DNA of 64,000 nt from Carcharhinus amblyrhynchos (Eukaryota), in assembly GCA_965287045.1 (NCBI GenBank), contig OZ336876.1:54188001-54252000 (forward strand), written 5' to 3'. Each line of letters opens with the position of its first letter. Positions within the stretch are counted from its first letter, which is position 1. The notes under the pieces are model-generated. The model did not search any database and had not been told where the DNA came from. It saw only the letters and a program-made list of their open reading frames with translations. Made by a program: the position numbers and the translations under genes. Below, in pieces: positions 10,822 to 58,817 of the stretch.

Positions 10822-10917
10822 GGTGATATTGATTCAGGATGTTGGAAACTATTAGAAAATTCCATTCGTAATTTTAGAATTCTGTAACCGTTTCCAACAT
10901 CCTGAATCAATATCACC
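10822..10917. repeat. Perfect 28-bp inverted repeat with 40-nt spacer
   Basis: GGTGATATTGATTCAGGATGTTGGAAAC (10822-10849) is the exact reverse complement of 10890-10917. Confidence 0.97.
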
Positions 10918-11187
10918 GACTTTGCAGCTGCCTCCTTACCTACTTTGCATTGTAGCATAGGTATTGGTTTTAAGACTGTGATATTTGTAAAGAAACTGTC
11001 CTGTATTGAAGGTCCGAGGTCCAGATGAGGGAATAGAATTAAATGGTCAATGCATGGAGCCTGGAACAGTTTTGTATATGGTAACTACCGTGGGCATGAT
11101 TTATTTTGGGGAGATGCATTTCAATCTTGATCTGTACGCCCAGTCATTCCTTGTGTAAATTAATGTACCATTTGGAGTATTTTGGAA

Positions 11188-11456
11188 TTAAAGTAAAGTT
11201 AAAGTTTATTTATGAGTCACAAGTAAAACTTACATTAACACTGCAATGAAGTTACTGTGAAATTCCCCTAGTTGCCACAGTCTAGTGTCAATGCACCTAA
11301 TCAGAACATCTTTCTGAATGTGGGAGAAAACTGGAACATCTGGAGAAAACCCACATAGTCATGGGGAGAATGTGCAAACTCTATATGCTCAGTGACCGAA
11401 GCTGAGAATTGAACCTGAGTCCCTGGCATGTGAAGCAGCAGTGCTAACCACTGTGT
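11188..11456 (-). mobile_element. V-SINE, second subfamily (aataaacttt-type tail)
   Basis: Reverse complement of the V-SINE head and V-domain. The tail is shared with copies at 15590, 34028 and 56988. Confidence 0.85.
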
Positions 11457-12156
11457 TAACATGAACTGGGTCTTAATGGGGATTCTAAAAAATTAAAAAT
11501 ACAAATTTAGATTTAATTTTCGAAATAAGGAAAAAAAACTATTTATTCCTCTAAGACCCTGATATCTAAACTGCCACTGAAATGCCAATATTCTAATCTC
11601 TTTATTTGGTTCTGTTCTCATCCGTTGTTTTTTTTTGAAAGCTAACTAGCTCCCTCTTTTAGCCTAATTATGTTAATCTACTGAGAAAGGGAGTGGTTTC
11701 TATGAGAAATAGATACTGAGTAAACAATGGATTATCTTGTTGGCAACCCTCCCGTATACAGGTACCAGCACAAAGAACGAGCAGGTTGTGTTGAATGCTG
11801 AAAATGATTGGGGAGACATTTTGGTTGAGTGCTAAATTCTCAACACTTTTCCACCTAATTGTAAACACTATTTACATTTCTTTACAACCGCTTTGAGTGA
11901 ACTGCCTGTGGGAACAATTCACAATATGTTTACCCTGGGTCCATAAAATGATGAATTCCATGAACTTATTTGAAACATTACAAACTGTTTGGTTTAAACA
12001 AAATCACAAATCGTTATTTCACAACACTGTTATGGTGCGCAAACTATCACTCATCTGCTGTGCTGTTGTCATTTGAGTTTGCAGTAAAAATAACAAAGCA
12101 GTAGCTCTCGGCTTATCAGCAGCCTCCTGAATTAGTATTGTGTTGTCTTTCTGTAG

Positions 12157-12261
12157 GAATGAGTGGCCACGCAGAAGTAGTGAGAGTTGTGTACCATCCA
12201 GACAAAATCTGCTTTGAAAAACTGCTCAAGGTCTTCTGGGAGAGCCATGACCCAACACAAG
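12157..12261 (+). CDS. MSRA: MSRA internal coding exon (equivalent to human exon 4), 105 nt
   Basis: Acceptor ttgtctttctgtAG and donor G|GTACAG. Translates (x)[34 protein letters not shown](G), with the MsrA GHAEVV and FWxxHDPT motifs. Length and phase 1/1 match the vertebrate exon. Confidence 0.97.
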
Positions 12262-13774
12262 GTACAGTAATGAATAGACCAGTTCCTCATTATATTCCTA
12301 ATTACTGCTGTGGTAATTAGTGTTTCAGTAACATGTTTCAAATGAACCTTGAAACCACATGTGGTCCAAACACCGTGGAAAAAGAAATGGACAGGCGGAG
12401 TCTTCTTTTAAAAAACATTTGAGACAATTGAAGCAGAAAAAATACTGTGACTGCTCAACTCGGGGCTGTTAGTGTTGCACTGAAGAGATTTGGTTTCCTT
12501 GGCTGAACGGGAAATATTGATGTTGTTCATGTACAAGTCTGCAGCACAGTTTATTTCACCTTCTCAACTTGTGTGGAGTGATGAGCATTGTGGACTTTTT
12601 TTGGTTAATAATAGTCAGTACTTTTGACTGTCTACAAAGGCCATAAGTACGTTTTGTAGTTTTGGTCCCTGATATACATTTTTGCTGACCCCAGTGGATT
12701 AATACCATATAAATTATGAGAATGTAAATGTTGGTGAGGGGTTAATCTGCACAGTTTAATCAGTCGATTATTGGGTTTCCTTTACAGTTTTTGTATAATG
12801 CTCAGATTTTACATCATATTAAAGAAATGATTTGCAAAACTGAAATATTAAAAGGTAGAATTATGAAAATAAATGAATGAAATCTGAAATCATTTTGTTA
12901 TTCATAGAGCTTTTTAAAAACACCTCTCCTTAGCATGCTCATGCTCTAGAACTTGGCTCACCATGTGTTAAACATACAACTTGTGGTGCTAAGAGACAGG
13001 AAGATTTCTTCACCTGCACTATTCAAAAGATTTAGCCACAGTGTATGGACATTGCTGGTTCATTCTTTTAAACTGCTGGTTCACCTCTGGACCTTACTTG
13101 GGCTTATCTTATTTCTACAATTTAATTCTGAACTCTAATGACAACTGTACGTTTCCTTTGGCTGCTTGTGCCTGTAGGCATGGGTAGCTTGGTAAGTGTG
13201 CCTATTGGTCTGGAAGAGCATGGGGAGCAACCAAGAAGACAGGAGAGAGCAGAAACTGAAGAGGGTACTTTGTGTTGTGGGATGTGTTATTCAGTAGGTT
13301 TCATGAAGAGGTTCTGCGTCTTGTATGATTTAACAGTAAATGTTTATTAATCACTGGTGACTATATGGATATATATAGAATCTAAGATAGGAGCTGTCTC
13401 CATACTTGCCTCTGCACACGTCTCTGTCCAGTACAAGACTGTCCTCCTATACTTGAGTCAGTATACTGTGGGTAGTGCAGTGCTCAGTCCTATGTTAGTC
13501 CTTTTGATACCAGACCCTTGTTGTACAACCTTCAGGGAACTCTTTGTCTGTCTGAATTCAGCAAAAGAGCAATATGTGAGGTGCTTTGCCTCACAAAAGA
13601 AGCTGTCACTGAGCTATGTTACTTCCTGTAGTCGCAGATCTAGCTTTGAGTCAAGATATGAGCAACACTGCTGTGGCTATCACGTTCTTTATGATGGTCA
13701 CCGCTTGTGTAACTGACTCTGTGCAAACTGCAGCATGAATTTCTGTTGAGATGACACGAGTGACAACACCAGGT

Positions 13775-14276: not shown

Positions 14277-14530
14277 CTAAGAGACAGAACTCTTCCTGTC
14301 TCTTAGCACCACAAGTTGTATGTTTAACACATGGTGAGCCAAGCTCTAGAAAATAAGCATGCTAAGGAGAGGTGTTTTTAAAAGGCTGTATGAATAACAA
14401 AATGATTTATGATTTGATTCATTTCAATAATTCTACCTTTTTAATATTTCAGTTTTGCAAATCATTCCTTTAACATAGGGAGCAACCATGAAAACAGGAG
14501 AGAGCAGGAATAGCAGAGCGAAGAGGGTAC
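14277..14530. repeat. Local templated duplication mosaic: inverted copy of 12819-13004 plus direct copy of 13219-13268
   Basis: 14291-14473 is the reverse complement of 12819-13004. 14474-14530 matches 13219-13268. Confidence 0.92.
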
Positions 14531-18974: not shown

Positions 18975-20265
18975 TTTATTTATTTACTGGATGTGGCAGT
19001 CGCTGGCTGGATCAGAATTTATTGCTTATCCATAATTACTCTTGAGAAGGTGATAATGAGCTGCCTTCTTGAAGCACTGCAGTCAGTCCACGTGCTGTTG
19101 GGGAGGGAGCTCCAGCGGCATTGAAGGGGCAGTGATGTATTTCCAAGTCAGGTTGGTGAACGACTTGGAGGGGAGTTTCCTGGTGGTAATCCCAGATATC
19201 TGCTGCTCTTATCCTTTAGATTGGTAGCAGTCATGGGTTTAGAAGGTGATTCCTGAGGAGTCCTGGTGAGTTCCTTCAGTGCATTTTGTAGATTTAACAC
19301 ACTACTGGTACTGTTCACCAGTGATGGAGAGAGTGAATGTTTGTGGAAGGGATAACAATCAAGCGGGCTGCTTTCTCCTGGATAGTGTCAAGCTTCTTGG
19401 GTGTTGTTGGACCTGCACTTATCCAGGCAAATGGAGAGCATTCCAGTGCGCTCCTGACTTGTGTCTTGTAGATGGTGGACAGACTTTAGGGAAATTGGGA
19501 TGTGAGTTACTTATCACAGGATTCCTGGCCATTGATCTGCTTTTGTAGCCACAGTGTTACTATGGCTGATCCAGTTCAGTTTCAGGTCAATATTATCGCC
19601 CAGGATGTTGGTAGTGGGGGATTCTGCAGTAGTAATGCCACTGAATGGTAATTGTTAGATTCTCTCTTGGTGGAGATGGACATTGCCTGACACTAGTGTG
19701 GCATGAAATTTACTTGTCATGTATCAGCTCAAGACTGGTTGTTGTCCAGGTTTTGCTGCAGGTGGGCATGGACTGCTTCAGTATCTGAGGAGTCACAAAT
19801 GGTGCTGAACATTGTGCGGTCATCAGCAAACATCCCCACTTCTGATCTTATGATGGAAGGGAGGTCATTGATGAAGCAGCTGAAGATGGTAGGGCCTAGG
19901 ACACTACCCTGAGGAACTTCTGCAGTGATGTCCTGGAGCTGAAATGATTGACCTCCAACCACCACAACCATCTTCCTTTGTGCCCATATGACTCCAACCA
20001 TCAGAAGGTTTTCCCTTGATTCCCATTGACTTCTGTTTTGCTAGGCTCCCTGATGTCACCCTCGATCAAATGCTGTCTTAATGTTAAAGGCAATCACTCT
20101 CATCTCATCTCTGGAGTTCAGCTCCTTTGCCCATGTTTGAACCAAGGCTATAATGAAATCGGGAGCTGAATGATACTGACAGAACCCAAACTGAGCATTT
20201 TTGAGTGGGTTATTGCTGAGTAAGCGCTTCTTGGTAGGGCTGTTGATGACCCCTTCCATCACTTT
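18975..20265 (-). mobile_element. CR1-type LINE, 3' 1.3 kb including RT relic
   Basis: Minus ORFs give VPQGSVLGPTIFSCFINDLPSIIRSEVGMFADD and NAQFGF...IAFNIKTAFDR (RT motifs), with frameshifts. Confidence 0.92.
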
Positions 20266-20430: not shown

Positions 20431-20810
20431 AGTAAGACGTCTACAACACCAGGTTAAAGTCCAACAGGTTTATTTGGTAGCAAATGCCACTAATTTTCAG
20501 AGCTCTGCCCCTTTGTCACGTGAGTGTCCTGTCTAGAGACAATACACATCTCTTTAACCTATGCTTAATGTTATCTCCACTCACATTGTCTGCACCTTTA
20601 AGACTTGATTAGCTGTAAAGACTCGCATTCTAATCAGTATTCTTAAACTGAATGTGTGCCTTTATATGCCCTGTTTGTGATCTGAACTCCCCACTCACTA
20701 GCCCTGAAAGCTAGTGGCGTTTGCTACCAAATAAACCTGTTGGACTTTAACCTGGTGTTGTGAGACTTCTTATTGTGTTTACCCCAGTCCAACGCCGGCA
20801 TCTCCACATC
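20431..20810 (+). mobile_element. Penelope-like element (PLE) end with inverted partial terminal copy
   Basis: Terminal inversion acaacaccaggttaaagtccaacaggtttatttgg / ccaaataaacctgttggactttaacctggtgttgt. Flanked by direct repeat atgttcctcatagt (20420-20433 and 20811-20824). Same family as 50838-51250. Confidence 0.85.
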
Positions 20811-21749
20811 ATGTTCCTCATAGTCCAGTATTTATTTTTCCTCCTCCAATTTTTTATTTAGTTCCCTTTTGAAAGCTACCATCTGTATCCACCAGTCTTT
20901 CAAGGAATGAATTCCCGATCACAAGGGTTCAATGCATTATTAAAGAAGTCTTCTCTTCTCCCTTTTGATTCTTTTGCTAATTATGTTCAATCTCTCCCAA
21001 ATGGTTACCTGACTCTTATCTTGGACAGATTGGGTGGACCAGTGGATCTTTTCTTGTCCATCATTGTTTGCATGTTCATGTACCCTTGTGATTTTGAACA
21101 TCTCTATTAGATCTGACCTCTAAGATGAACAATCTCAGTTTCTCCAGTCCCTTCACATAACTGAAATTCATCACTCATGGTATTATTCCCTTATATGTTA
21201 AGTTTCAATTCATTGCAGATTTGTTTATCTTGAAGGCCGAGGTGAGACTTTGATGCATGAACGCTCATGTATTCCTTTCAGTTAGCCTTCATGTGCAACT
21301 TCTGCAGTCAGCTTGCTGCACAATATTTTGCAGAATGGAGTTTGTGTAGCATATGCTGTGTTTTATTGCAGTCAGATACACAGAACATCAAGACATTGTT
21401 TAGGACAGTATACAATTCCTTCATTTTTATTGGCAAAATTACGGATAATCTAAATTTTAAATTTAGTGAAAAATGTTTGACAGTGTAAATAAAGAATAAT
21501 TAAAATAAAGTTAATCCTTTCTTAAACTTTCAACTGTTTAGCCATTTACATTTGACAGCATGTAAGTTAGTCTGATTGCTGCTGCACTCCCATCCTGTTT
21601 GATTGTACATTGAGTGAGATAACCAGAGAGAAGATCAAGGTTCAGACTTGTGTCACCCATGCTGGAAAAGTGAATATTTTGGATCCAATGGAACAATTAC
21701 GTTTACACAAAAGCAAAATACTGCAGATGTTGGATACCTGTTACATTAC

Positions 21750-23388: not shown

Positions 23389-23495
23389 GTATGCGGCAAG
23401 GCAATGATATTGGCACACAGTACCGCTCGGTCATTTACCCATACACACAGGAGCAGATGGCTGCAGCTCTGAAATCCAAAGAGGCCTATCAGGAG
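23389..23495 (+). CDS. MSRA: MSRA internal coding exon (equivalent to human exon 5), 107 nt
   Basis: Acceptor cttctttttgatgtgcAG and donor GAG|GTATTG. Splices in frame to the previous exon giving (G)[35 protein letters not shown], with the MsrA RQGNDxGTQYRS motif. Confidence 0.97.
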
Positions 23496-24844
23496 GTATT
23501 GTGCATACACGTTTAGAGGGAGATTATTTTCTTTAACTGTTTCGTGGCCAGACCTGTGCCACAATTGTGTTTTTAAGCAGCAAAAGGGTTTTGATGCTTT
23601 TGCAGTCATCTGGCTGCATGGTTATAGTTATTAATCCAGAGATAAAATTTACAGCCACCCTTCTGATTTGTTTAATTGATATTGTTTAGGTTTATAATCA
23701 GACACGTTAATGTCCATTGCTATAGTTTTACTCATTAGTTCTCGCCATTTTGTTTTAGAAAGTATTTTTTCAATTATGAACGGCAGGTGTTTGAGAAACA
23801 TGAAAAGTGGCCTACATTTTCCAAAATGGGTTTAGAAATCTTAATTCCTTATTGTTTCCTGCCTCCATGTTGTTGTTTTTTGAACAGAAAAATGAGACTG
23901 CAAGCAGCTATTGTACTTTCTACATCAATGTGGTATCATGAGGAGAAACTTGTATTAAAAATTTACGTAGTAGTTGAGATTATTTTGTACAACATCCAAA
24001 ATATTCTCTCAGCTGTAGCGCCAGAAAACAATGTTTAACTATTTGGATTGCAAATGCCACTGGCTGGATCATGGTGCTCTAATAGGTCAAATTGTTTGAC
24101 CTGAATTGCATGAAATTATGTTTTAAAATATACTTTATTTAAAAATGAACAAAATTCTGCAACCTGACTTTCCTCCCTACACCACTCTCCCATCGCACTC
24201 TTTTTGTTTTAGAAAACAGTCATACACACGTTTGTGCAGAGCTGTTACTGAAAACAGTAAAACCAGAGTAGAAATGATGGCTTAGTGATTATGTTGTTGG
24301 AAGAGTAATCCAGAGGTCAAAATAATAGAATTACAGAAATGGTTACAGCACAGAAAGAGGCCATTTTGGCCCCTTGTGTCTGTGTCAACTCTCTGCAAGA
24401 GCAGCTCTGCTCCTCTCCTCTGCTCTTTTCCCATGGCCTTGAACATTTTTTTGTCTTCAGCTAATTATCAGTTTTCCTTTGAAAGCCACGGTTGAATTTG
24501 CTACTGTAATACTCTAGGACAGTGCTCTCTAAACCCTAACCACTCGCTGTGTAACAAAGCTTTTCTTCCTGTCTTCCTGTTGTTCTTGTGTCAATCAATT
24601 TAAATCTATGTGCTCTGGGTCTTGGCCCTTCCACCAATCAGCAGAGTTTCTCTCCATCCATTCTGTCCAGATCAACACTTCACCAAATCTTCTTCAACCT
24701 TCTCCAAAGAGAACAGCTCCAACTTTGTCAATCTGTTCCCGTAACTTAGTCTCTCATTCCTGGAATAATTTCTGTAAATTTTTCTGCACCCATTGCAGTG
24801 CCATTTACTCTATGCTTTTTTTTATAAAGTCCAGGATGCTGTAT

Positions 24845-25290
24845 GTATGAAGAGAGATTGATTAGGTTAAGATCATTCTCGCTGAAGTTCAGACAAATGA
24901 GGGGGGACCTTACAGAGATTTATAAAATTCTAACAGGATTAGAGTAGATGCAGGGAGGATGTTCCTGATGGTGGGGGAGTCCAGAACCAGGGGTCACAGT
25001 CTGAAGATTCAGGGTAGACCATTTAGGATGGGGGTGAGGAGACATTTCCTCTCCCAAGGAGTTGTGAACCTGTGGAATTCATTACTACAGGAAGTAGTTG
25101 ATGCCAAAACATTGAATGTATTCAAGGGGCGGCTAGATATAGCATTTAGGGCGAATCTTGGGATCAAACATCATGGGGAGAAAGCAGAATTAGGCTACTG
25201 AGTTGGACGATAAGCCATGATAGTGATGAATGGTGGAGCAGGCTTGAAGGGCCAAATGGCCTCTTCCTGCTCCTATCTTCTATGTTTCTT
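24845..25290 (+). mobile_element. 5'-truncated CR1 (HER1-like) LINE 3' end
   Basis: ORF 24959-25201 ESRTRGHSLKI...FLSQGVVNLWNSL...FKGRLD is the classic CR1 ORF2 C-terminus. Tail ggccaaatggcctcttcctgctcctat. Confidence 0.92.
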
Positions 25291-26334: not shown

Positions 26335-26561
26335 CTTTACTCCAGTTGAAGATTAAGCAGTGTTTTATACAGCTACATCATACCTTCCTTGCTTAAGTAT
26401 ACTCTATGCTTTTATTTATAAAGTCCAGGATGCTGCATGTATGAGGAGAGATTGATTAGGTTAAGATTATTCTTGCTGAAGTTCAGACAAATGAGGGGGG
26501 ACCTTATAGAGATTTATAAAATTCTAACAGGATTAGAGTAGATGCAGGGAGGATGTTCCTG
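26335..26561 (+). repeat. Local direct duplication of the 24805-24967 region, spanning a junction between two LINEs
   Basis: 26401-26561 matches 24808-24967 closely, including the chimeric junction. Confidence 0.92.
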
Positions 26562-45290: not shown

Positions 45291-46434
45291 GTAAACTGAA
45301 TGGGATTATTGAATTAATCCAAAGTGCTGGAGTGGTCAGTGGTACCCTTTACTATGAAACTGAGCCTTTGAAAGGCATTTGGATTGATTCCAATTCGACT
45401 AAAGTTAAACTTCATTAGTGTTTGACGAAAATGACAATCTGTACTTGCTAAATCCTAGCCTTTTTCTTGTTACTTTGTGAAAATATCATTATGTCATATT
45501 CTTTTTGATGAAGAAATGCTAAAATGCCATTTCCCTCACTTCTACATCTGTGCTATGCTGAGTTTTGTTAAAAAAATCTTGTCATAATTTGTTGTTGCCC
45601 AGTTCGATACTGTTAAGAGTGGATACAGTGCCAGCAATAGCTCCAGAAAACACTTCATTTGAGGAACAGGTGAGAACAGATTGGTTTAAGACTGTCATCA
45701 GCCAAAGCTATTATTTAGATACTGCAAAGTTTACTTTCACCATTGTTGCCATGGCAGGAAAATGAAGTCAGAAATTTTGTAAATATGTTACAAGCTATTG
45801 TACTAATCTACAATTTAGTTTTGGTGAGTCAGTGTAATGTAGTTTGTGTGCTGTAGTAATTTTTGATAACTAAATATTAATGCACATTTTTTTTCTCCAA
45901 ATGCTTGATTGTTTATCAATCTTTTTGCATTTGTCTTCGGAAATGCAGACTCCTAGAAGCCGCAACTTTGCAAAGGAAAAAAAACAATAGTGTAAATGAC
46001 CCTCTTCTCGACAGCGACTTTAAAAAAAGTGCTTCTAATGGTCTGACAAAATTTGGTTAACATGGCAACTGTGTGTTTAATGCATATATTTGCGTGGATT
46101 AAAATAATCACTTTTTTTAACAACTAATTTGATTTATTATTGATAGCACCAGTGTTAATACATATGGCGTAAATAGACTTGGGTGTGTCGCATGTGGAAA
46201 TTTCCATTCAATGGTGCTTTAATGTATATATGTAAATAACTCAGCCATTTCACTTATACAGTGCTGCAATCTTATCATTGACGTTGACTGCATAGTTACA
46301 GTAGACATCACATTCTGTTTTCACTCTTGACCTTTCCATCCTCTCCTTTTTTACTCTCGACTCTTGTTAGATTATAGTCACTCATGAGAAAAGGGATATC
46401 TTCCCTATTTAAAGAGCCCCAGACAAATTTTTAA

Positions 46435-46720
46435 AAATTCATTCATGGGATGTGGGTTGGGCCAGTATTTATTGTCCATTAAATACCCTTGAACTGGGTG
46501 GCTTGCTAGGCCAATCACATGTAGGCCAGATCAGGTAAGGGTGGCAGATTTACTCCCCAAAAGGGCATTAATAGGTCAGATACAACATTGGACAATGGCT
46601 TATTGGTCTTATTAGACTTTTGATTCCAGATTTTTATTGAATTTAATTCAAATTTCACCATCTGCTATGATGGGTTTTGAACCTAGGTCCCCTTGGTCTC
46701 ATGACTACACTATTGCCTAC
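46435..46720 (-). mobile_element. Short CR1-tail-related retroelement relic
   Basis: ttcattcatgggatgtggg...tttattgtccat...cccttgaactg shares its end with the 18975 CR1. Confidence 0.6.
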
Positions 46721-46804
46721 CACGTTAAAAAGCAGCTCTTGGAAGAACAAATTAGAAAGCTGAGGAATGCCATTATTGAAATATTAAAAGAAACTTACTC
46801 ATAT

Positions 46805-47030
46805 ATAGAACATAGAACATAGAACATTACAGCGCGGAACAGGCCCTTCGGCCCACAATGTTGCGCCGACCAGTCTTATTTTTAAAAAAAAACATTGACC
46901 CACTAATCTAAACCAATCCCTTTTCGTCCATAAACCTATCCACCAATCTCTTAAACGCCCCCAAACTAGGCGCATTTACAACTGCAGCAGGCAGGGCATT
47001 CCAGTCCCTCACCACCCTCTGGGTAAAGAA
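46805..47030 (-). mobile_element. CR1 3' end with (atagaac)n tail
   Basis: atagaacatagaacatagaac...acaggcccttcggccca...gcattccagtccctcaccaccctctgggtaaagaa. Confidence 0.8.
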
Positions 47031-48003
47031 TATGGCACCTTTCACAACCACAGGGCATCCCGAAGTATCTCTGGACAATGATTTACCTTTAAATTGTAGT
47101 CACTAACATCATTTAGGAGGGCTGGTGAATGAGCCATCATGTGCAGCAGCATAGACCATGTGGAAGGAGGCAACTATGGCCTCCATACCCTGACCTTAGT
47201 ATTCCTTGCAGTTTTGGAAGAAATTTAATGACCTCCTTAGGTCAGCAAATTGGTGAAAACTGAATCACCAAAAAACATAACGTACTCCCTAGAATAATGG
47301 TTGACATTGCCTTTTAGAATATCACATGGTACCGTTTCTCTAGTTTCAAAATCAATGTAATTTGGCAACATTTATGTTTCATATCCTGCAATGAATGCTA
47401 GCAACTGTGAAGTCTCACACTCCAGGTCTTTGCTTTGGACATCTCTCCTTGTTGGCGTCTAGTCCTCAAATCCTGACTGTTTGTGACTGCAGGGCTTGGA
47501 TACAGTTGCATATAATTAACACCATGAATTCCTCATGTCCTGCGGGAGAAGACAGCAAGTAATGTCAGGCAACTGAAAATAGGATAATGCCAACATCTGG
47601 AATTTGCCACCACATGCACCCTGGCCCAGAAGTTGGTGAATAAGGTATGGGAGCCACAGTACCTTCAGATGGTTTTTGAGGACATAAATTGCATTTGCTG
47701 GACTGTTAAATACTTTTTTCCAGAATAAAGTTACCTAAAATTGCTGTGAATTTCATGGTCTGTTGCACAGGTAACTTTTCAAAATCCAGATGGACCTAAT
47801 GGCTCAGTTCTTCTCATATGCTGCCAAGTAGAGTACATTTTTTGTACTCGGTATTTCTATGTATTTTCAAGCTCCCCACAAGCTACTATATTCTTTATAA
47901 GAAATCCACAAAGTGGTTGATTTTGAGCAAGTGCTGGTCAAACACACCAAAGAGACTTCCCTCTTTCTGGCAACATTGGGAATTATTCATCATTCCGTCA
48001 TTT

Positions 48004-48555
48004 TTTGATTTTAATTTGATTTATTATTGTCACATATACCAACATACAGTGAAAAGTATTGTTTCTTGCACTATACAGACAATACATACCGTTCATAGAG
48101 AAGGAAATGAGAGAGGCAGAATGTGGTGTTACAGTCATAGCTAGGTTGTGGAGAAAGATCAACTTACTGCAAAATAAGTCCATTCAAAAGTCTGACAGTG
48201 GCAGGGAAGAAACTGTTCTTGAGTGGATTGGTACGTGACCTCAGACTTTTGTATCTTTTTCCCAACGGAAGAAGGTGGAAGAGAGAATGTCATGGGCGCA
48301 AGGGATCCTTAATTATGCTGGCTGCTTTGCTGAGGCAGCAGAAAGTGTAGACAGAGTCAACGGATGGGAGATTGGTTTGTGTGATGGATTGAGCTACACT
48401 CATGACCTTTTCTAATTCCTTGCAGTCTTGGGCACTGCAGGAGCCATACCAAACTGTTATACAACCAGAAAGAATGCTTTCTATGGTGCATCTGTAAAAG
48501 TTGGTGAGAGTTGTAGCTGACATGCCAAATTTCCTTAGTCTTCTGAGTGTTGGCA
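48004..48555 (-). mobile_element. Rex1/Babar-like LINE 3' end (DUF1891-type C-terminus)
   Basis: Minus ORF 48290-48556 LRRLRKFGMSATTLTNFYRCTIESILSGCITVWYG; (aaatc)n tail. Other copies at 58557 and 62557. Confidence 0.85.
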
Positions 48556-49282
48556 TGGGGGGACCAGGACACGTTGTTCAGTCTCTCACTTGTACTCAGC
48601 AGCTCAGAGACACTTACCTGAGGGATATAGGTAATGTAGAAGAACAATTAATACATACTGAGACTCATAACACATGAAAACCAGAGAACTGAAATATACA
48701 AATGGAGCTTGATGTAGTTGTGTGATGCCAAAGGGTATATCATTATCTAACTGTAGAGCAAACAAATGATGATTTCCTTGTTCCTGTCTGATGCAAACGC
48801 ATTCTAGCAGCACATTAGAGTCAGAAAGATTCTGCATGGCCTCATCTAAGATGTGCAACAAATGACTGAAATATTGGTAGTTTCTACTGACCGGCAATGC
48901 TACAATCCAACGTCCTTAATGCATTCAGTTGGTCACTGGGTAGTCTGGAGAAAATGGCAGCTGCTGGAACACCTACAAACCTTTTCCCGCTTTGTGAGAA
49001 ATGCCAACAGATTAGTCAATTCAATATTGGGGCATTGAATGAAGGATTGTAGACTATCTGACTCAAATTTAGCTGGCCTCAGAAATTTGTCACCATCTTC
49101 TGCCTATTCATACTCCATGATAATGTGCATGACGTGACGTATAGTATAGATTCTACACCATTGGAATGGAAAACTGGGGTCAAACAAGGTGTGTCTTTTC
49201 CATTTTTGTGGCAGTGATGTTACTTCTCAGTTTCTAGCAAATTACCCATTGTCAGCGATAATCTACAGAACAGAAGGGAGAC

Positions 49283-49710
49283 TGAGGACTAGACTCCTTG
49301 TTGGCATCTAGTCCTCAAATCCTGACTGTTTGTGACTGCAGGGCTTGGATACAGTTGTATATAATTAACACCATGAATTCCTCATGTCCTGTGGGAAAAG
49401 ACAGCAAGTAATGTCAGGCAACTGAAAACAGCCTAAGAGAAGAATGTGGTGCTCGTGGGTTTGATTCAGTGGGCGGGATTTTCCGACCTTGTTTGGGCGA
49501 GATCGTAAAATCCAGCCCAGGTCCAACAGAGATTTCCATTCTGCGAGCCTCGCCCACCCCGGAATTGGGACAAGTGAGACGGTAAAATTCTGTCCGGTAT
49601 GTCCAGGCAATAACTGCAGATGTGCACTTTTCCAGTGGCAAAGAGACGTTGTGGGGGGGGGGGGGAGGGTGTGTGATTCTCCCAAAAAATTCTAAGTGCT
49701 GTATTCACAC
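49283..49710 (+). repeat. Local templated-insertion mosaic: copy of 47445-47579 joined to copy of 51587-51859
   Basis: 49294-49428 matches 47445-47579 (4 mismatches counted in 135 bp). 49427-49710 matches 51587-51859 apart from scattered substitutions and a G-run expansion. Confidence 0.95.
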
Positions 49711-50269
49711 CATCTTCAATCCAAATCTGCAACCCACTCTAATTTCAGCCATTGAACCTTGATATACAGATGAAGCTCGTGTGTAAACCCACTCAGAAAC
49801 TGGGCTGCAGGTCATTGTAGACTCCGTCTCTGAAGGATATGAGAATATGGGTCCTCTTTTAACCAGTTCCCACAGCACAACATTCTCCTCGCTCATTTGG
49901 TTAAGACCAACAGAGAGGAATAGAAAATGTAAACAACTTTCCATTTCTTGGGAGCCTCCCCTCAATGACGACACACACTTGATAAAATTCATCATCACTT
50001 CCAATGTGCCCGTCCTGCCTTTAGTGACTGAAGAAATTTGTGGACCAGGATCTGAAATCTAAGAATAAGGTTATGGTTTATTGGGAAGCATTGATTTCCA
50101 CACTCATATAAACCTCAGACACTTGAACAACCTACAGCCAGCACTTCAAAGCACTGGTGAAGTCTCACCAATGCAAGACTATCCAAATTCAGTGTTAAGA
50201 AAGATAAGTGTAGGAAAGCAGTGTCTTATCCCAAATCAACTTTTTTTCCAATCCTTTCAGTTTTTCAGG

Positions 50270-50640
50270 GGCTATAGATGTCACATGGCTTGACCAGTGT
50301 TTATTGCCCATCTCTGATTTTCTTTGAGAAAGTGGCAGTGAGCTGCCTTCTTGAACTGCTGCAGCGCATGTGATGTAGGTGCACCCACAATGCTGTAAAG
50401 GAGGGAGTTCCAGGATTTTGACCCATTGATGGTGAAGAACAGCGATGTAGTTCCAAGTCAGAATGGTGTGTGGTTTGGAGAGGAGCCCCCAGGTGGTGGT
50501 GTCAGCAAGGATTTGCTGCCCTTGTCCATCTCAACTGTAATGGTTGTGGGTTTGGAAGGTGCTATTGAAAGAGCCTTGGCAGGTTGCTGTTGTGGATCTT
50601 GTAGATGGTACACACAGCTGCCACAACAGGCGGTGGTGGA
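50270..50640 (-). mobile_element. CR1-type LINE 3' fragment nested in the RTE relic
   Basis: Collinear with 18975-19330. Confidence 0.85.
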
Positions 50641-50837
50641 GGGCAACGCTTGCCCAGCATTGAGGTACTAATCATTCAAAACCAGTTCCTCTGAGTGGAT
50701 CATGTCGCCACGACACCAGATTCCCATAGCAACTGCTCTAATTGGAACTTTTCGATATACAGACAGCCTTTTACAAGATGACCTGAAAGAGGGTACATAG
50801 ATATGGGTATTCTTTGAATAGCAGTTATTTCAGCTGT

Positions 50838-51250
50838 TGACAATAGCCAAGTTCCGCACACATGAGGATGTCCCTGACCAGGATCTTAGGTTCATGTCAC
50901 ACTATCTGTTACTCCCATGACTTGCCTAGGCTTGCAAAATCTCACTAATTGTCCTGGCTGGAGACATCTCTTTTACCTGTGCTTAACCCTCACTCCACTC
51001 CACATTGTCTGTACCTTTAAGACTTGATTACCTGTAAAGACTCGCATTCCAACCATTATCTTGAAAATGGAGTTTGTGTCTATATATGCCCTCTTTGTGA
51101 ACATGACACCCACTCACCTGATGAAGGAGCAGGCTCTGAAAGCTTATGGTTTGTGCTACCAAATAAACCCGTTGGACTTTAACCTTACATTGTGAAATTT
51201 CTTACTGTGCTTACCCAAGTCCAATGCTGGCATTTCCACATCATGACAAT
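50838..51250 (+). mobile_element. 5'-truncated Penelope-like element: ORF C-terminus plus 3' terminal repeat
   Basis: From 50843 it reads IAKFRTHEDVPDQDLRFMSHY, matching the end of the PLE GIY-YIG domain (..GLNRD.GF.SHY). Possible TSD tgacaat at 50838-50844 and 51244-51250. Confidence 0.85.
51112..51150 (+). ncRNA. Minimal (PLE-type) hammerhead ribozyme motif, catalytic core intact
   Basis: actcac-CTGATGA-a-ggagc ag gctct-GAAA-gc-TT-atgg: conserved CUGANGA, GAAA and UH, helix II, and a palindromic AGCU helix III. Helix I has a mismatch. Confidence 0.7.
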
Positions 51251-51627
51251 TAGGCTGCCAGATTGCAGTCCCTGGAGGACAGCAGGAACACTTCAGGGTT
51301 GCCTGCAGAACATCCCCGAAGAGGTCAAACATTTCTGCCAACTCATGGAAGACCAAAATTGAAAAGGCTTAGCTGGGAAAGCACCAAACTCATTGAGAAA
51401 TTTCTTCGAGATTGTGCAGAACTGAAGGTGAAGCATTAAAGAGAGCACGCAGACCTCCAAGCAACTCATCTACCCAACTCTTCAAACACCATCTGCTCCT
51501 TGTGTGACAGAATCTGCACTTTCTGCATTGGACTCATCAGCCATCTTGACTTTTATAGTGAAAGCAAGTCATCCTTAATGCCGAGGAACAGCCTAAGAGA
51601 AGAATGTGGTGCTCGTGGGTTTGATTC

Positions 51628-51755
51628 AGTGGGTGGGATTTTCTGACCTTGTTCGGGCGAGATCGTAAAATCCAGCCCAGGACCAACTGAGATTTCCATT
51701 CTGTGAGCCTTGCCCACCCCGGAATTGGGACAAGCGAGACGGTAAAATTCTGTCC
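51628..51755. mobile_element. MITE of about 125 bp (copied at 49469-49595)
   Basis: Imperfect TIRs gggYgggatttt / aaaattctgtcc. Confidence 0.65.
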
Positions 51756-51817
51756 AGTATGTCCAGGCAATAACTGCAGATGTGCACTTTTCCAGTGGCA
51801 AAGAGACATTGGCGGGG

Positions 51818-53018
51818 CGGGGCGATTCTCCCAAAAAATTCTAAGTGCTGTATTCACACAAAATTGGAGTAAATCACACTGGGTTTTGTTCAGCGGGAAT
51901 TTCAAAATGAACCCCCCACACTTTGTGCACTAGTTCACTAGTGTGATTCATGCTGAAAATCAGTGCCGGGGCCTATTCCTGCTGTAGAGTCTGGCAGCAA
52001 AGCACTGAGTGGGTCACTGTGCATTCACCATTCTTTTAGGCAGGATTCTGACTTAGAAGCATTCAGTCATAATCCTACAGATGATAGTTTTTTTTTGCAC
52101 CATTGATTCCTCAGCCAAGCACATTCATCAAATGTCTGATCCTGTGGCTCCTCTTGTATGATTACTATTGGAACAACACTTTTCTCATCAGTAGGGTAAA
52201 ACTAAACTGTCTCATGATGGTCTAAACCCAGCTCATGTTCCTTATTAGTGGGCGAACAATCCAAAGCTTGGTGAATTCTGCCAGGAGGCACATTCACCAT
52301 TTCTGTCAGCACTGAGATCTGCTCATGCACAGTGATCCCTATCTGCCGGCCTCCCGATCACTGACCAGTTTGACCAGTGGCCAATCCCACAACCCCTGCA
52401 TCATCAGACTTGCAAACCGACCCCCCCGCACAATCCCGATTGCTGCTTTCCTCCTCCCTCCACTGACCTGCAGAGTGGCAATGGGGAACCCCCCCCCCCA
52501 CCTCACCAACCGATAGTCCTGCCTCCTAGGTGCCACCCCTAAAGGCCCAGTCCCCTTGGCACTGTCTGATGCATGGTGGGCATTGCCAAGGTGCCCCCTG
52601 GGCATTGGTACTTTGTCCCTTGGTGAATTCTGCTGGGAGGCACAGGCTGGCATGGCCAAGTTCCAATGTCTGGTTGTATCACCCTTACCCCCAGACCTCC
52701 TGGGGAGACCTCCATGACCCCCCCTTCAAGAGTACAACTCTAAACCCACTAGAGTGAACCACACCTAGCGGGGGGGGCGGATAGGGAGAGGCTAGCAGGT
52801 CCAGAGACTGCAGTCCCGGCCTAGCTAATCATATTTAAATTATATTAAAATCTCCCCCTGCATATCTAATGCAGCTCTGCACCTATTTCCAGAAATCTGG
52901 TGCTGGGAGAGGTGCTCGGAGCTGGATACCCAGTGCGGATTGCACTGATCTGGCCCTGCTGAAACCTCCTGGCCTGTTGTGCTAATAAATTAGTGCAGTA
53001 GGATGGGAGAATCTCCCG
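51818..53018 (+). mobile_element. Non-autonomous DNA transposon/MITE, about 0.95 kb plus a nested insert
   Basis: TIRs gggcgattctccca / tgggagaatctccc. A second family member lies inverted at 54946-56010. Confidence 0.8.
52037..52281 (-). pseudogene. 28S rRNA-derived fragment (3' region, domain V/VI including a decayed sarcin-ricin loop)
   Basis: ggattctgacttagaagcattcagtcataatcc...tcatcagtagggtaaaactaaactgtctcatgatggtctaaacccagctcatgttccttattagtgggcgaacaatccaaagcttggtgaattctgc is a diverged reverse complement of conserved eukaryotic LSU rRNA. Flanked by direct repeat cattcaccatt (52022-52032 and 52291-52301). Confidence 0.92.
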
Positions 53019-54945
53019 TGTTGTTTATTAGGAAAATGTGAAGAGTTGTTCAGAGGGAGTCATTAATAGGGGTTTAAGGAAATTTAAAACAATCTCAAAC
53101 TTGAGAATTGGTTACATGTTCTCCTTGGGAAGGGATTGGGGGTGGGTAGGTTTTGGGGTTAAACTTCTGCAAACCATGAAGCAGGGGGGAGTTTTGTGTT
53201 AATAGGCTGGCTGATTTCAGAGTACCTGAGGGGAAGTTTTTATTCAGCCAAATAAAGAAAAATAGAATTAATTGGTGACTGCAGAGCCATCAGGTGGTGA
53301 ATGTGCAGATATTCAGATCAATTCACAGAAATTAAATTGCAAAGTTTGACAATGTATATAAGCTAATGCATTTGTGCATTGCACCTCATGACACATTTTT
53401 GAATGGGAAATATCCCAGTAAAAGTGCCACCTACAAGGTTAATCGCTACTGTGAGTAAATGGTGCCATTTTTAAATTGTGTTTTCCCATTGACATATCCT
53501 GCCATACGAGCTGTTGATGGATTCCACTCAGCTGGGGCTCCCCCAGCTTCCTTAACATATAATAGATATAATCTAGCAGATTTCCCATGGTGTTGCTCTT
53601 ACTGTGTCAGAAGGTACTTTGTTTATAACAACAGGAGCTGCATTATGCATTATGTATTAATAGGATCATTGATTTACCATGACTAAATAAGCAACATTCC
53701 TTTATCTTTGTTTTCTAGGATTTTTAGCAGTGTTGGAGGAATTACGCTTAGTGACTGTTATGCTATGAAAATGGTCAATGATGACCATTTTCTTATTCTG
53801 CATAGGCACAGTCAGATCTCCCATGGCATTGCTCGCACTGAGTGAGAAGATATGTTGCTTTATTACACCTAGGTCATTATGAACACCGTTTGTGGGAAAT
53901 GAGTTACTGAAACTTTGACATGAGCTACATTTTAAACACTAGGCTTTTAGTACATTGAGAGAGAGAGAGGTGATAAAGGCAGATACGTACAAAATGCTAT
54001 GGGTGAGAGTGCACAGAATGTAGTTAATTTCTGAATAGAAGCTATTTCAGCGGTTAACAAATGGGTTGGCAATGTTGTCAGATCGCACACATAGGTAACC
54101 ATTGCTTTGGACAAGTATTGGGAGAGAGTCTGATTGCCCTCATGGGGTTAGATGCCCAGAATGAGTTGGTGCCCTTGGGAGAAGACAGTGAGAGAAGCGA
54201 TTCTGAAAGGATGTTATTATGGGGTCGACGTATGGCTTGGTGGTGAAGCTAGTCTTTTTCATTGTTTGGTAGCAACCTCTTCGGTTGTGCCGAATTATGA
54301 TTGCTTATATTCAATCACTTTCTAATGCGCTGGATTGCAGCAGCCCACATGCACATAATCTCTGAAGTATTAATGTAGAATCAGTAAAAGAAGTGAGGCG
54401 TGATGTTGTTGTGACTGGAGGTTTTGCTGGGTCACAGTTAATTTAAAAGATCAGTTTATCAGCTGCAGCACATTTGATTTATGCAGAATTGAATTTGCAT
54501 TCATTGTTGATAACTGCATTGGCCCCCTCCTTTTAAAGAGAACATTTATTCTGTGAAGAGCTTTTATGAAGGGCATTGAATTCTGAATGTGGAAAAAAAA
54601 AATCAGGCTTGTTTCAGAGGGACATCTGCCAAAGGTGTTGTCATTTCTTTTTAAAAATATTTCCACATGACATTTTCCCTTTAGTCAAAGCTTAACAGAT
54701 TTGGCAGGAATCTTTATAGATGTCTCAATATTTTTGCATTAATTTGTCTTGAAAATGTTAACCAAAATGTTATATCTCAAGGCAGCCATCACTATTAATG
54801 TCTCCATAATTTAAATGTGTTTAATCTTTTTGTTTCCATTCTGATATTGCCTTCACTTTAATATGTGAACGGGGCAAGTCAATTTGAAAGCAATCATTTC
54901 TGACTGAAGTCTCCCCTTAATTTCTAAGGAAGATTATTCTGACTT

Positions 54946-56010
54946 TGGGGCGTTTCTCCCAGCCGTTTAGCAGGCCTCCTGTTGGTTGCCACGGGTCTCT
55001 GAGGGTTTCTGGCTGCTGGATTTCCGGCGCTGTCAGCTCCACACCAGAACTTGACACAGAGTTGAATAAATTATGGTAATAAGGATTTTAATATAATTAA
55101 TGGGCCCAGCACTGAAGTCTCTGGGCCCACTAGACCCCCCCCTCCCCCCAGTAGGAGTGGTTCACTTCAGTGGGATTTACAATAGCTCCCCGCTAACAGG
55201 GAGCTGGCAGCTGAACCCTGCAGGAGGCCCCCCAGGAGGTTGGGGGCTAAGGGCTGGTGCCCCCTGGGTATTGCCAGCTTGGCAGTGCCAGCCTGGCCCA
55301 CAGCACTGTCCAAGGGTCAAAATGGCATTGCTCAGGGGGCACACTGGAACTGCCCACAGGGCATTGGGCAGTGCTAAGAGGGTGGGGGGGGGGGCAGAGG
55401 GGAGAGCGGTGCCTAAAGGGGGTGGGTGGGCCTCTGGTTGAGGGGTTCCACTCCACTCTGCTGTCAGTGATGACAAAGGGAGGGAAGCCAGCGATTGGGT
55501 TGGACATCGGGGTGGGGCGTGGTGAGGGGGGGGTGGGGAGGTGGGGGGGTGGGTTTGGCCTGTGGTGAGTTGAGGGGGTGGTCAGGACTGAGGAAAGTGG
55601 GGGGAGGCTTGAGAATTTGGGACTGTGGGGGGAGGGCTCGTCAGGACACATCTGAGAGCCCAGCAATCTGAGATTGGGGTGGGGGGGGTATTGTCGTACG
55701 GGTAACGGTGCAGGGTCACAGGGCTGGCCAGTAATCAAGTGGGTCAGTGACCGGGAAGCCAGCAATGTGGGGCTACTGTGCAAGCACCAATCCCAGCGCT
55801 GGCAGTGGCTCGTACAGCAGTATGCTATTGGCCTCTCCAACGGGAATTGGCCCCGCACCCTGATTTTTAATGAGGTTCATGTTAGTGCACTCTGTAACGC
55901 ACAGAGTGTGGGAGATTCATTTTGAAAACACTGCTGAAAAAAACCAGTGAGGTTTAGTCCAATTTTTATGTGAATTCGGCTCTTCGAATTTTTTGGGGAG
56001 AACCCCACCC
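54946..56010 (-). mobile_element. Second copy of the 51818 MITE family, inverted
   Basis: Ends ggggcgtttctccc / ggggagaacccc. Interior is the reverse-complement homologue of 51818-53018 without the rRNA insert. Confidence 0.8.
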
Positions 56011-56032
56011 TCTATTTGAAAAAAACAGGGTT

Positions 56033-56378
56033 GGGGGCGGCATGGTAGCACAGTGGTTAGCACTGTTGCTTCACAGCTCCAGGGACCTGGGTTCGATTCC
56101 CAGCTCAGGTCACTGTCTGTGTGGAGTTTGCACATTCTCCTCGTGTCTGCATGGGTTTCCTCCAGGTGCTCCGGTTTTCTCCCACAGTCCAAAGATGTGC
56201 GGGTTAGGTTGATTGGCCATGCTAAGAAATTGCCCCTTGTCCTGAGATGCATAGGTTAGATGGATTAATGGGTAAAATATATAGGGATATGGGGGTAGGG
56301 CCTGGATGGGTTTGTGGTCAATGCAGACTCAATGGGCCAAAGGGCAACTTTCTGCACTGTAGGATTCTGTGGTTCTGT
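56033..56378 (+). mobile_element. V-SINE (HE1-like), full length, relatively young
   Basis: Clear A box (tagcacagtggttag) and B box (ggttcgattcc), V-domain and tail. Confidence 0.92.
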
Positions 56379-56987
56379 GGGTAACTGTCATGTTGGCCAA
56401 ACTGTTTGGTTAACGTATTGCATCCAATAAATTAATAAACTTTTATCAAATTGTGGTTTTACTTATCCAAAATGGCATTATATTTTAGTGCTAGTTGTCA
56501 TTGTAAGGACCCTTGGGATAGTGGCTTCTAGATGTGTGTAATCTTTATCAGCGATGTCACATTGATGTGAAGGGAGTTGATATGTATATGTTTGGTTAAC
56601 TTTGCTCTCAGAAATTGCAGCTTGCTATAGGTTTTACTGAAAGATAATTTTTGCATTAAGATAGTATCTATCCCATATGTTATAACCCTTATTCCTTTAC
56701 ATACCAACTTGAGCTGGGAAGACCAATACCTAAAATGGTGCAAATAAGTGATTTTAAAAAGTTGATAAAATAATTTTGGCCGTGGCTTTAACTGTAAGCA
56801 GGCTCTCATCTGCCCAGTTTTGCATCCCATTGTATTAGCCATTCCTTGCTGACTGGAAACATTACTTTCTCTCCAGTTAACGCAATTATAATTTCATAGG
56901 CTCACATTTAGTCGGTGGGATATTTCAGTTAGTCAACATTCTCTGTTATACAAAACCTGTGAAGCCTCTGAGGCTATATACTTCCAA

Positions 56988-57290
56988 AGTTTTTTTAAAG
57001 TTTATATATTAATCACAAGTAGGCTTACATTAATACTGCAATGAAGTTACTCTGAAAATCCCCTAATTGCTACACTCCGGTGCCTGTTCGAGTACACAGA
57101 GGGAGAATTTAGCATGGCCAATCCACTGAACCAGCATGTCTTTCAGACTATGGGCGGAAACTGGAGTGTCCGGAAGGAATCCACACAGACACGTGGAGAA
57201 TGTGCAGACTCCGCAAAGATAGTGGCCCAAGCTGGGAATTGAACCTGGGTCCCTGGCATTGTGAGGCAGTAGTGCTAACCACTGTGCCAC
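56988..57290 (-). mobile_element. V-SINE, second subfamily
   Basis: Homologous to 11188 and 34028. Confidence 0.88.
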
Positions 57291-58556
57291 TATAGTGTGC
57301 TGGTCTGTTACACTTGTCCTTGTGTCTTGGCGATTGGATGTTTCGCAAGCCAGTGAGCCTCAAGCATTTTGTTACGTACTTGAAATATCTCATGTGTTGC
57401 CCTGCCAGAGCACATCTGTATCTCAATGCAATGTATCAGGAACTTGTAGGAGGCAGCCAAGTTATCAGATCCTATGATTGCTTAATCTTATCTGTGCACA
57501 AGAATGGAGATAGCAAGGAGGACAGAAAGAACAGGCTGGTGCAGTGAATGGCACATTGCAACAGGATTTTTAAGACTGTGGCTTTTTAAAGCTTTGCTAA
57601 ATCTTACCTTTTTAAATCTCATCATATATTAATACCCAATGGTTAGAAATAAAACATGGTCACTTCTGTAAGTAATCATGAAAGCAATGTCATTGCAATG
57701 CAGATGCCTGCCACTGATACCATTGCATTCTTCTACAGACAGTCAACTAAAACTGCTCTGTTCATTCAAGTAGCATGAATGCCAATGGTTCTCAAATGCC
57801 ATCAATAATGAAAATGAAATTACACTTCTTACTGCTCCATTCTTAGCTACTCCAAACAGACTAAGTGGCACTTCCATTATTTGCATGATGTCATTCTTAC
57901 AGGCTGAAAATAAGACTCAGACTAAAGAAATCAATATGTGGAGCTTTCCAGAGAGCTTCAATTACATTCAACTAATAGCCTGTTAAAGTATGATATCACT
58001 ACACATCAGAGAGAGGGGGGGGGGTCATCTAGTCTCAACAGAAGAGACGAGACTCTATTCTTATTTGATAAATCAAATATTAATGTGCAAAACATCAATA
58101 ACTGTGATGTTTCAGATATGCACAAAACTAATGGAGGGGCTTTCCTGGTTAGGATTGGAGCTGCCATACAGCTAAACATGTCTTCAAAAATGAAATATCC
58201 CCCTTCCCACTCACCAGCACTTGAACAGGGCTTTTATTTTTTATGTGGAAGAGGTACCTGCATAAGTCAAAGCGGAAGCCCCCATAATATATGCAAATCA
58301 GGAGTCCTGTGATTCTTACTGGTGTCTATCATTGTCACTCTGTTTAGTGAAATCTGGGCCCCTATAATCCAGTCCCCCTTCACCCCAATCCAAGCTAACT
58401 AGCCCCCACAACACTACTCACCACCCTGATTCGATCTTATCACCCAACGCACCCTGGACATTCTAGAATTCTGGACATTCTAGAAACTACTAGAAGTAGT
58501 TGGAAGAGAGAATTTTTGTATTTTTGAATACAAAAATCCAACTACTTTTGTATTCA

Positions 58557-58817
58557 GAGATACAAAAGTCTGAGATCATGTTACCACCAACTCGAGAACT
58601 GCTTCTTCCCTGCTGTCGTCAGACTTTGGATGATGGCAGCATGAATGGACGTATCTTGCATTAAGTTGATCTTTCTCTATACTCTACCTATGCCTGAAAC
58701 ACTACATTCTGCACTCTCTTGGTTCCTTCTCTATGAACAGTATGCTTTGTCCGTATAGCGCGCGAGAAATAATACTTTTCACTGTATGCTAATACATGTG
58801 ACAATAAATCAAATCAA
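58557..58817 (+). mobile_element. Rex1/Babar-like LINE 3' fragment
   Basis: Reverse-complement homologue of 48004-48265; ends acaataaatcaaatcaa. Confidence 0.85.

Follow-up and report, generated by a model that had tools for sequence, protein, structure and literature searches.

Locally copied tracts in the introns of a shark msra-like gene compared with repair-mediated duplications

Known systems and the setting of the locus

Repair-mediated duplications were described in 2009 in a survey that covered primates including human, other mammals, chicken and zebrafish, and no cartilaginous fish (PMC2671141). The novelty suggested in a preliminary description of the present locus is thus not retained: the mechanism class is already known and the value of the shark sequence is comparative. 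A search for a shark description of this class, in which few subscription journals were covered, found none. Like the tracts reported here, repair-mediated duplications are at least 50 bp long, have a donor within 5 kb, show microhomology, deletion or filler at their junctions, and lack a poly-A tail. Two-template chimeras occur among them too (20 cases); only 5 of these 20 use two local templates, whereas both chimeras here do. An origin by double-strand break and strand-annealing synthesis was inferred from the junctions, in that study as in ours. The filter applied there might drop our event 2 and the second part of event 5 (5B), which the authors present as a limit of their method, and their main text does not describe the fillers as fold-back copies. 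The 'doublets' of mammals (Thomas et al. 2004, as cited in PMC2671141), near-identical short pairs, are likewise short, local and non-tandem duplications for which imperfect break repair was proposed. The other relevant systems are the SD-MMEJ snap-back and polymerase-theta insertions, for which the parts of the reports considered here (PMC5728401, 10.1101/2019.12.20.882852, PMC7407515) describe hairpin-copied reverse-complement fillers, repeated rounds and new microhomology. This pattern matches the 11–12-nt fillers and one scar (58465–58557) of our sequence. In those systems the tracts are short with templates within about 30 nt, whereas the main tracts here are 10–30 times longer and kilobase-distant.

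The window, i.e. the whole stretch of 64,000 nucleotides of Carcharhinus amblyrhynchos DNA analysed here (contig OZ336876.1), carries two plus-strand exons of a PMSR-domain, msra-like host gene: 12157–12261, with AG and GT borders (Pfam PF01625, E 1.2e-10), and 23389–23495 (PF01625, E 7.1e-8). Five locally templated pairs had been proposed and all five were recovered by self-BLAST and alignments. As had also been proposed, they are intronic, and the gene is the genome's one msra-like gene; the intron 3' of exon 23389–23495 holds events 2 to 5. Their tracts measure 138–284 bp and the gaps 348–1877 bp, in agreement with a copy of at least 50 bp and a donor at 50 bp to 5 kb. A literature link between MSRA and fragile sites was looked for and none was found.

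Structure and specificity of the copied tracts

Event 5 is an insertion built from two templates. Its 425-bp acceptor (49283–49707, plus strand) consists of a snap-back filler, a copy of template A, a 5-nt overlap and a copy of template B. Segment 49294–49431 is a direct copy of A (47445–47582, plus strand, a region covered by contigs of both outgroups) with 5 substitutions in 138 positions. Segment 49427–49710 directly copies B (51587–51859, plus strand, a dispersed repeat between unique flanks), with 9 substitutions in 221 positions before a G-run and 0 in 34 after it, and ends in a 3-nt microhomology with the right flank (49708–49710). The filler 49283–49293 is the exact 11-nt reverse complement of 49307–49317; it matches the donor state over 12 nt and the acceptor state over 11 nt, so it dates from the insertion. 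Single contigs span the empty site in two outgroup runs, leaving the window at 49282 (X10) or 49284 (X7) and rejoining it at 49708, with 11 and 9 letters in between. The insert therefore replaces 9–11 ancestral bases, and the junction overlaps and filler coincide exactly with the outgroup breakpoint. Since it is absent from two outgroup species, it is a true insertion and no artefact; its left junction is also read through by run X18 (41 bases) and the same-sequence run X4 (54 bases). Donor and acceptor differ by 3.6–4.1%, which lies between the window's distance to X18 (e.g. 16/806 letters) and those to X7/X10 (112/2100 and 206/3103), so that this clock is consistent with the pattern of presence and absence.

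The event 1 acceptor (14277–14530), deduced from its chimeric build, has the same organization. After the filler 14277–14287, an exact 11-nt reverse complement of 14296–14306, segment 14286–14476 is an inverted copy of the probable donor A (12816–13009, minus strand; the best and only other match listed genome-wide) with 12 substitutions in 189 positions, and segment 14474–14530 aligns as a direct copy of the probable donor B (13219–13269, plus strand). Junctions show 2- and 3-nt overlaps plus the filler, the 3-nt overlap joining A to B. The earlier observation that two chimeras each open with an exact 11-nt reverse complement is thus accurate for events 1 and 5. In event 2, 26400–26561 (plus strand) directly copies 24806–24967 (plus strand) with 6 substitutions in 162 positions. 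The donor comprises about 37 bp of flank and part of a high-copy repeat, which continues to about 25290; in the acceptor the repeat sequence ends at 26561. The acceptor is 96% identical to the local donor, while dispersed copies span the repeat part only and reach no more than 90%. A start at 26335 had been proposed. The best local templates for 26336–26399 score 28 and 30, within the shuffled range (maximum 32), so this extension is unsupported and the copy begins at 26400.

Events 3 and 4 are inverted pairs. In event 3, 43703–43895 (plus strand) pairs with 44243–44445 (minus strand), with 16 substitutions in 193 positions. In event 4, 43964–44163 (plus strand, an old copy at 75% identity) pairs with 45095–45287 (minus strand), with 37 substitutions in 190. 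The first copy of event 4 lies in the spacer of event 3. A single chimeric insert 43693–44165 merging both events was considered and rejected, because their divergences differ (8% versus 20%) and the linking 68 bases have only a 13-nt local match. Polarity was established by outgroups for event 5 and by structure alone for events 1 and 2; events 3 and 4 are unpolarised.

Could these pairs be dispersed repeats that lie close together by chance, or errors of the assembly? Event 2 is mostly high-copy repeat, the donor of sampled pair L074 has 14 weaker dispersed matches, and the genome search of sampled pairs was confined to those of at least 84% identity. Even so, the local partner is the best non-self match for all five window events, which answers the concern that many dispersed copies might be equally similar, and for all six sampled pairs searched (each at least 84% identical). 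For events 1, 3, 4 and 5A it stands alone among the matches listed; in events 2 and 5B, which include repeat pieces, it is still longer and closer than the dispersed copies. The copies diverge by 4–20%, and in the outgroup contig comparison, which covered events 3 to 5, one contig of another species (run X10) runs across the two copies of event 3 and the two of event 4. Unique-sequence pairs number about 18 per 1e9 of pair-space at 50–500 bp versus 0.07–0.49 beyond 5 kb, so local pairs exceed chance. The repeat or assembly explanation is largely refuted for events 3–5, and we give it very little weight overall.

The claim that the copies are neither transpositions nor adjacent tandem duplications is upheld. 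No poly-A tail is seen at the junctions inspected, and the empty site of event 5 reveals base loss in place of the target-site duplication that, with an A-tail, would mark retrotransposition or 3' transduction. Sampled pair L185 alone has a 9-nt repeat at both ends, also a minor class in the table of Pace et al. (PMC2671141). Insertion is directly visible in event 5 and in four sampled acceptors (L074, L185, L020 and L043), each of which interrupts a repeat that is continuous in other copies. The data support the window pairs as real germline templated insertions.

Junction fillers, fold-back scars and mechanism

Snap-back fillers of at least 11 nt were found at 3 of 154 junctions for 0.10 expected, two of the three being those picked from the window in the preliminary description. 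Outside the window the count is 1 of 134 (expectation about 0.09; hand-calculated P about 0.08), a point against the explanation favoured below, and 5 further alignments contained none. Among young events (at least 90% identity), 3 of 11 have a fold-back filler. In both modelled new strands the priming hairpin differs from the minimum-energy fold; by eye, only 3–4 hairpin pairs are possible. It is equally possible that the filler arose as an initial short copy of the opposite donor strand.

Two fold-back scars had also been noted. The one at 10822–10917 has two perfect inverted arms of 28 bp that flank an imperfect centre of 40 bp, and it matches only itself in the genome. The fold-back at 58494 is real, yet it is a portion of a larger multi-step templated scar in a repeat copy (58465–58557), where alignment of family copies indicates that 93 nt replace 27 nt. 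In this family, 15 of 28 copies align to 58462–58464 and then carry 23–29 nt (27 nt in 13 of them). Read as reverse complement, positions 58501–58513 correspond to the left junction plus 8 of the deleted bases.

We consider it probable that the intronic copies from 0.3–2 kb away are scars of germline double-strand-break repair, i.e. repair-mediated duplications. A broken end would anneal to nearby DNA through 2–5 matching bases and copy 50–400 bases off either strand, and at a further short match synthesis would sometimes switch to another template close by. Once released, a new strand without a match at the far end may fold back, copy about 10 bases and thereby gain one, and joining would follow with loss of a few bases of the site. 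Judging from the sequence, strand-invasion synthesis could account for the long tract and polymerase-theta-type joining for the filler. That polymerase theta alone builds the whole insert seems improbable: the fillers and the scar 58465–58557 do resemble serial templated insertions and are the only elements here with the size and template distance of theta insertions (TINS), so the short fillers fit the theta reading proposed earlier. The 138–284-bp tracts from 0.3–1.9 kb do not, as the tracts reported in the relevant part of 10.1101/2019.12.20.882852 rarely exceed 10 bp and come from within about 30 bp.

Replication-fork template switching (FoSTeS/MMBIR type), in which a stalled nascent strand switches to single-stranded DNA close by, copies it and returns without a two-ended break, would leave a nearly identical scar, and we regard it as a less likely alternative. 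Both orientations are present in the sampled pairs (24 inverted and 15 direct, n=39), templates lie on both sides within 1–2 kb, and switch points fall at 3–5-nt overlaps. The 9–11-base loss and the self-templated filler are usual signs of end joining in the portion of PMC5728401 considered, though compatible with fork switching too. Somewhat less likely again is an origin of some of the inverted pairs, event 3 possibly among them, as small inversions with a duplicated breakpoint. Sampled pair L037 resembles such an inversion, so the class is mixed: its older paralogue (81%) is ordered X-Y-Z, and L037 reads inverted Y, inverted X, Y-Z. The position of the event 4 copy inside the event 3 spacer would also fit. 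Against this, a repeat-continuity test detected none among 24 inverted pairs, although in only a few of these did repeats lie at the flanks required, and L037 was missed; L074 and L185 are inverted, yet the halves of their split repeats share one orientation; and direct pairs cannot arise by this route.

Density, age and meaning in the shark genome

The claim of a genome-wide occurrence is borne out by a blind genome sample of 1.74 Mb, which yielded 27 pairs, or 15/Mb; by extrapolation the genome would hold about 40,000. The window gave an inflated density (about 55/Mb in its flanks versus 15/Mb elsewhere). The msra span contains 9 of 11 flank pairs (P 0.04) or, without two doubtful pairs, 7 of 9 (P 0.10); the test being post hoc, we do not claim a hotspot. 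Pair density did not correlate with GC or repeat content in 32 blocks. Sampled pairs (n=39) have a mean length of 172 bp and a mean gap of 1076 bp, compared with 162 bp and a mean donor distance of 1.2 kb in human repair-mediated duplications (PMC2671141). Their identities range from 66 to 99%, in accordance with the wide spread of ages suggested before. A pedigree mutation rate of 7e-10 per generation is given in the part of PMC10587355 considered; to date events with it, the generation time and the long-term rate would also be needed.

A rough count in the manner of Pace et al. gave 2–3 events in 0.71 Mb of repeat DNA, or 2.8–4.2/Mb (95% limits 0.3–12). Published densities per Mb of transposon DNA are 0.62 (human) and 0.19 (zebrafish), in a surveyed range of 0.08–0.65 (PMC2671141), a comparison to be read with the different counting method and wide intervals in mind. 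Rates in primates span 3–18 events per Myr in about 1,330 Mb of repeat DNA. A long-running, frequent mode above other vertebrates is thus suggested and not established. Compared with mammals, this genome may hold local duplications at several times the density. Such an excess could result from slow erasure; copies likely accumulate in this way, not necessarily by faster formation. We put forward only tentatively, and with more doubt than trust, the joint reading that the density is about 5–7 times that of human and 15–20 times that of zebrafish, with hotspots in some long genes and a sizeable share of young events closed by a fold-back filler. If true, break-repair scars would build up with time while point substitutions run slowly, leaving a large, dated natural record of long strand-invasion synthesis finished by a theta-type snap-back step. 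If the excess holds, thousands of datable junctions would be available for testing how long-tract repair synthesis ends in the vertebrate germline. Should the excess over mammals survive a single pipeline, slow substitution would not equal slow structural change, which would bear on claims about genome stability in sharks.

Local copies within the introns of an msra-like gene

All five duplicated pairs claimed in the preliminary description (events 1–5) were recovered where it had placed them, using self-BLAST and pairwise alignment. Only one of its coordinates lacked support, that of 26335 as the start of event 2; this copy begins at 26400. Some inserts combine two templates, A and B. Substitution divergence between copies is 6.3% for event 1A, 3.7% for event 2, 8.3% for event 3, 19.5% for event 4, and 3.6% and 4.1% for events 5A and 5B. 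For events 1A, 3, 4 and 5A, searching the genome listed the local partner as the only other match. For events 2 and 5B, which both include repeat pieces, it was the longest and closest match listed. These searches scored at most 40 candidates and skipped very common words, and match numbers are lower bounds. The segments are thus not members of families with many equally similar dispersed copies, the local partners being the closest among the matches listed for events 1A and 2–5. The repeat in event 2 runs on for 300 bases past 24806–24967, yet in the other copy it is cut off at 26561, so that 26400–26561 is identified as the acceptor, i.e. the site holding the inserted copy. Just before event 2, one spot is matched by 26361–26384 and 28457–28477, in direct orientation over 8 nt and in inverted orientation over 13 nt. 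These could reflect a third template, but their score lies inside the shuffled range.

The window is located at G000:C7:54188001–54252000 of a 2.92-Gb genome. Exons with domain matches to methionine sulfoxide reductase (PF01625) are present at 12157–12261 and 23389–23495, and further exons of this gene lie outside the window, at 68 kb on its left and 33 kb on its right, which places all events in introns. The four PF01625 matches in the genome are all at this locus, and we infer the gene name msra from the domain. The msra-like gene covers 165 kb or more (G000:C7:54119626–54285161) and holds 14 of the 16 local-pair alignments of the 264-kb region. The window also contains minisatellites with 30-bp (25613–25930) and 33-bp units (32251–32448), and a retroelement relic with a reverse transcriptase fragment at 19732–20040 on the minus strand (PF00078, E 5.6e-8). 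The palindromic dispersed repeats at 39920–40166 and 20433–20813, with several copies within the window, are probably non-autonomous DNA transposons. Nested inverted matches (51826–51989 with 55833–56002, 76%; 52552–52713 with 55223–55381, 72%) may represent small dispersed repeats or else the ends of an old element of 4 kb; six long reading frames tested at 51540–55876 gave no Pfam match.

Insert structure and the polarisation of event 5

Contigs from 4 of 23 sequencing runs were aligned to 43500–52200, which covers events 3–5. One contig of X10 (organism D) covers 48498–49282 and 49708–50087 with 11 letters between, and one of X7 (organism C) covers 49080–49284 and 49708–50353 with 9 letters between. 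Thus, in event 5, 425 bases replaced about 10, and the empty site in these two outgroups shows that event 5 is an insertion. Contigs of X18 (organism G) and X4 enter the insert from the left by 41 and 54 bases; none of those listed from the four runs spans it entirely. The window diverges by about 1–2% from X18 and about 5–7% from X7 and X10. The divergence of the event 5 copies, 3.6–4.1%, lies in between, as expected for an origin between those splits. A single X10 contig runs across 43540–46645, showing that events 3 and 4 are real and predate the X10 split. Polarisation by related genomes, as had been proposed, was therefore obtained for event 5 and not for events 3 and 4, both already in X10.

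Events 1 and 5 share the same build: a short filler at the insert end, template A, a 3–5-nt overlap, and template B. In both, this filler reverse-complements bases 11–24 within template A. The event 5 filler matches the donor, i.e. the copied segment, over 12 nt but the acceptor over 11, one acceptor base having changed since the insertion. As it keeps the donor state, the filler dates from the insertion. The left break of event 5 coincides with the start of the filler, and template B shares its final three bases with the right flank. In the simplest reading, synthesis would start from the right end, with the strand invading template B. The new strand would then switch to template A and be released, fold back, copy about 10 bases and be joined. 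A priming hairpin of 3–4 pairs can be drawn by eye, but it differs from the minimum-energy fold; stems longer than four pairs are reported not to be preferred in SD-MMEJ (PMC5728401). A filler made as a short first copy off the donor's other strand fits equally well, and the scars of template switching at a fork would be nearly identical to those of synthesis with fold-back. The fold-back scar reported at 58494 is present, as part of a larger scar in a repeat copy, where 93 nt stand in place of 27 nt, the empty state being defined by 15 of 28 family copies. It contains the reverse complement of bases subsequently lost. The fold-back at 10822 has no other copy in the genome by genome search.

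Occurrence across the genome

Self-alignment was extended to 200 kb flanking the window and to 35 blocks on large contigs, 1.74 Mb in all, set at round coordinates, blind but without random draw. Each copy had to hold 50 or more bases lacking a distant match in the sample and lying outside tandem repeats, with a gap of 50–5000 bp and E < 1e-6. Pair frequency per 1e9 of pair-space is about 18 at 50–500 bp versus 0.07–0.49 beyond 5 kb (bins including four satellite alignments). We found 23 pairs in 1.60 Mb, excluding two satellite alignments and one 1.9-kb pair. The last 0.14 Mb gave five alignments, or four more pairs, as two represent one pair split at a stretch edge. The resulting 27 pairs in 1.74 Mb (15.5 per Mb, 95% limits 10–23) bear out the proposed genome-wide occurrence. 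Thirteen of them have at least 84% identity, and the local partner was the best non-self match in all six of these searched genome-wide; pairs below 84%, outside that search, may include ends of rare transposons. The window flanks hold 11 pairs in 0.2 Mb, or 55 per Mb (P 0.001; 0.009 minus two doubtful pairs), which places the window in a pair-rich part of the genome. Mean length and gap over 39 pairs are 172 bp and 1076 bp.

Exact reverse-complement fillers of at least 11 nt were found at 3 of 154 junctions versus 0.10 expected from 20,000 random positions (P 1.5e-4). Two are those of the preliminary description; the third, in L060 (a 98% identical pair), is independent but alone not significant. 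Among events with at least 90% identity the count is 3/11, and 1/9 outside the window.

Not every pair is an insertion, since that in L037 (L037:4673–5717 and L196:641–1273) resembles an inversion whose 94-bp breakpoint was duplicated, judging by a paralogous segment 54 kb away with 81% identity. One direct duplication of about 428 bp (L100:8555–8982 and L100:9886 to L195:313; 97–99% identity, about 900 bp apart) is young and a candidate presence/absence polymorphism. Collinear 65–71% matches 25–31 kb apart (L017:3205–6257 with L020:3218–7146, and L042 with L044–L045) are probably old segmental duplications. One 50-kb block in the interior of a large contig (L086–L090, G000:C13:60000001–60050000) is all repeat or tandem-repeat, L086 being satellite-like.

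Relation to repair-mediated duplications in other vertebrates

Pace et al. 2009 described 824 human insertions with a mean of 162 bp, copied from donors at most 5 kb away; each of the 39 proximal junctions that they inspected showed microhomology, a deletion or filler (PMC2671141). They reported 20 two-donor chimeras, and additional examples from chicken, zebrafish and four mammals besides human (PMC2671141). The mean length here, 172 bp, compares with their 162 bp. Counting only acceptors that split a transposon, their densities per Mb of transposon DNA are 0.62 in human, 0.19 in zebrafish and 0.08 in chicken (PMC2671141).

A copy splits a repeat in 5 of 40 candidate pairs (L074, L185, L020, L043 and, doubtfully, L023), the split being supported by 30 loci for L074, 41 for L185, 1–3 for L020 and 1 for L043. 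The inverted copy at L185:5772–5988 splits a repeat with a 9-nt direct repeat on both flanks. The blind blocks hold 3 such acceptors in 0.71 Mb of repeat DNA, i.e. 4.2 per Mb (limits 0.9–12), a denominator that includes repeat DNA of the last 0.14 Mb, which the count leaves out. The L074 donor has dispersed relatives and would probably be rejected by the filter of Pace et al.; without it, 2 acceptors give 2.8 per Mb (limits 0.3–10). With or without L074, P is 0.01 or 0.07 versus human and <0.01 versus zebrafish, in a comparison that is rough, as our repeat map comes from pairwise BLAST within 1.9 Mb and not from a consensus library. A density above that in other vertebrates is suggested by this rough count (2.8–4.2 per Mb). 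The shark mutation rate is low (PMC10587355), and a clock several times slower than that of primates would keep copies visible for several times as long. This could absorb the entire excess, and a higher rate of formation per year is therefore not established.

The local duplications are real, genome-wide and, in one case, well polarised. They belong to the class of Pace et al. and extend it to a lineage left out of that survey; no description in sharks was found in the literature searched. Their density and snap-back closure may exceed those in other vertebrates, which is testable.
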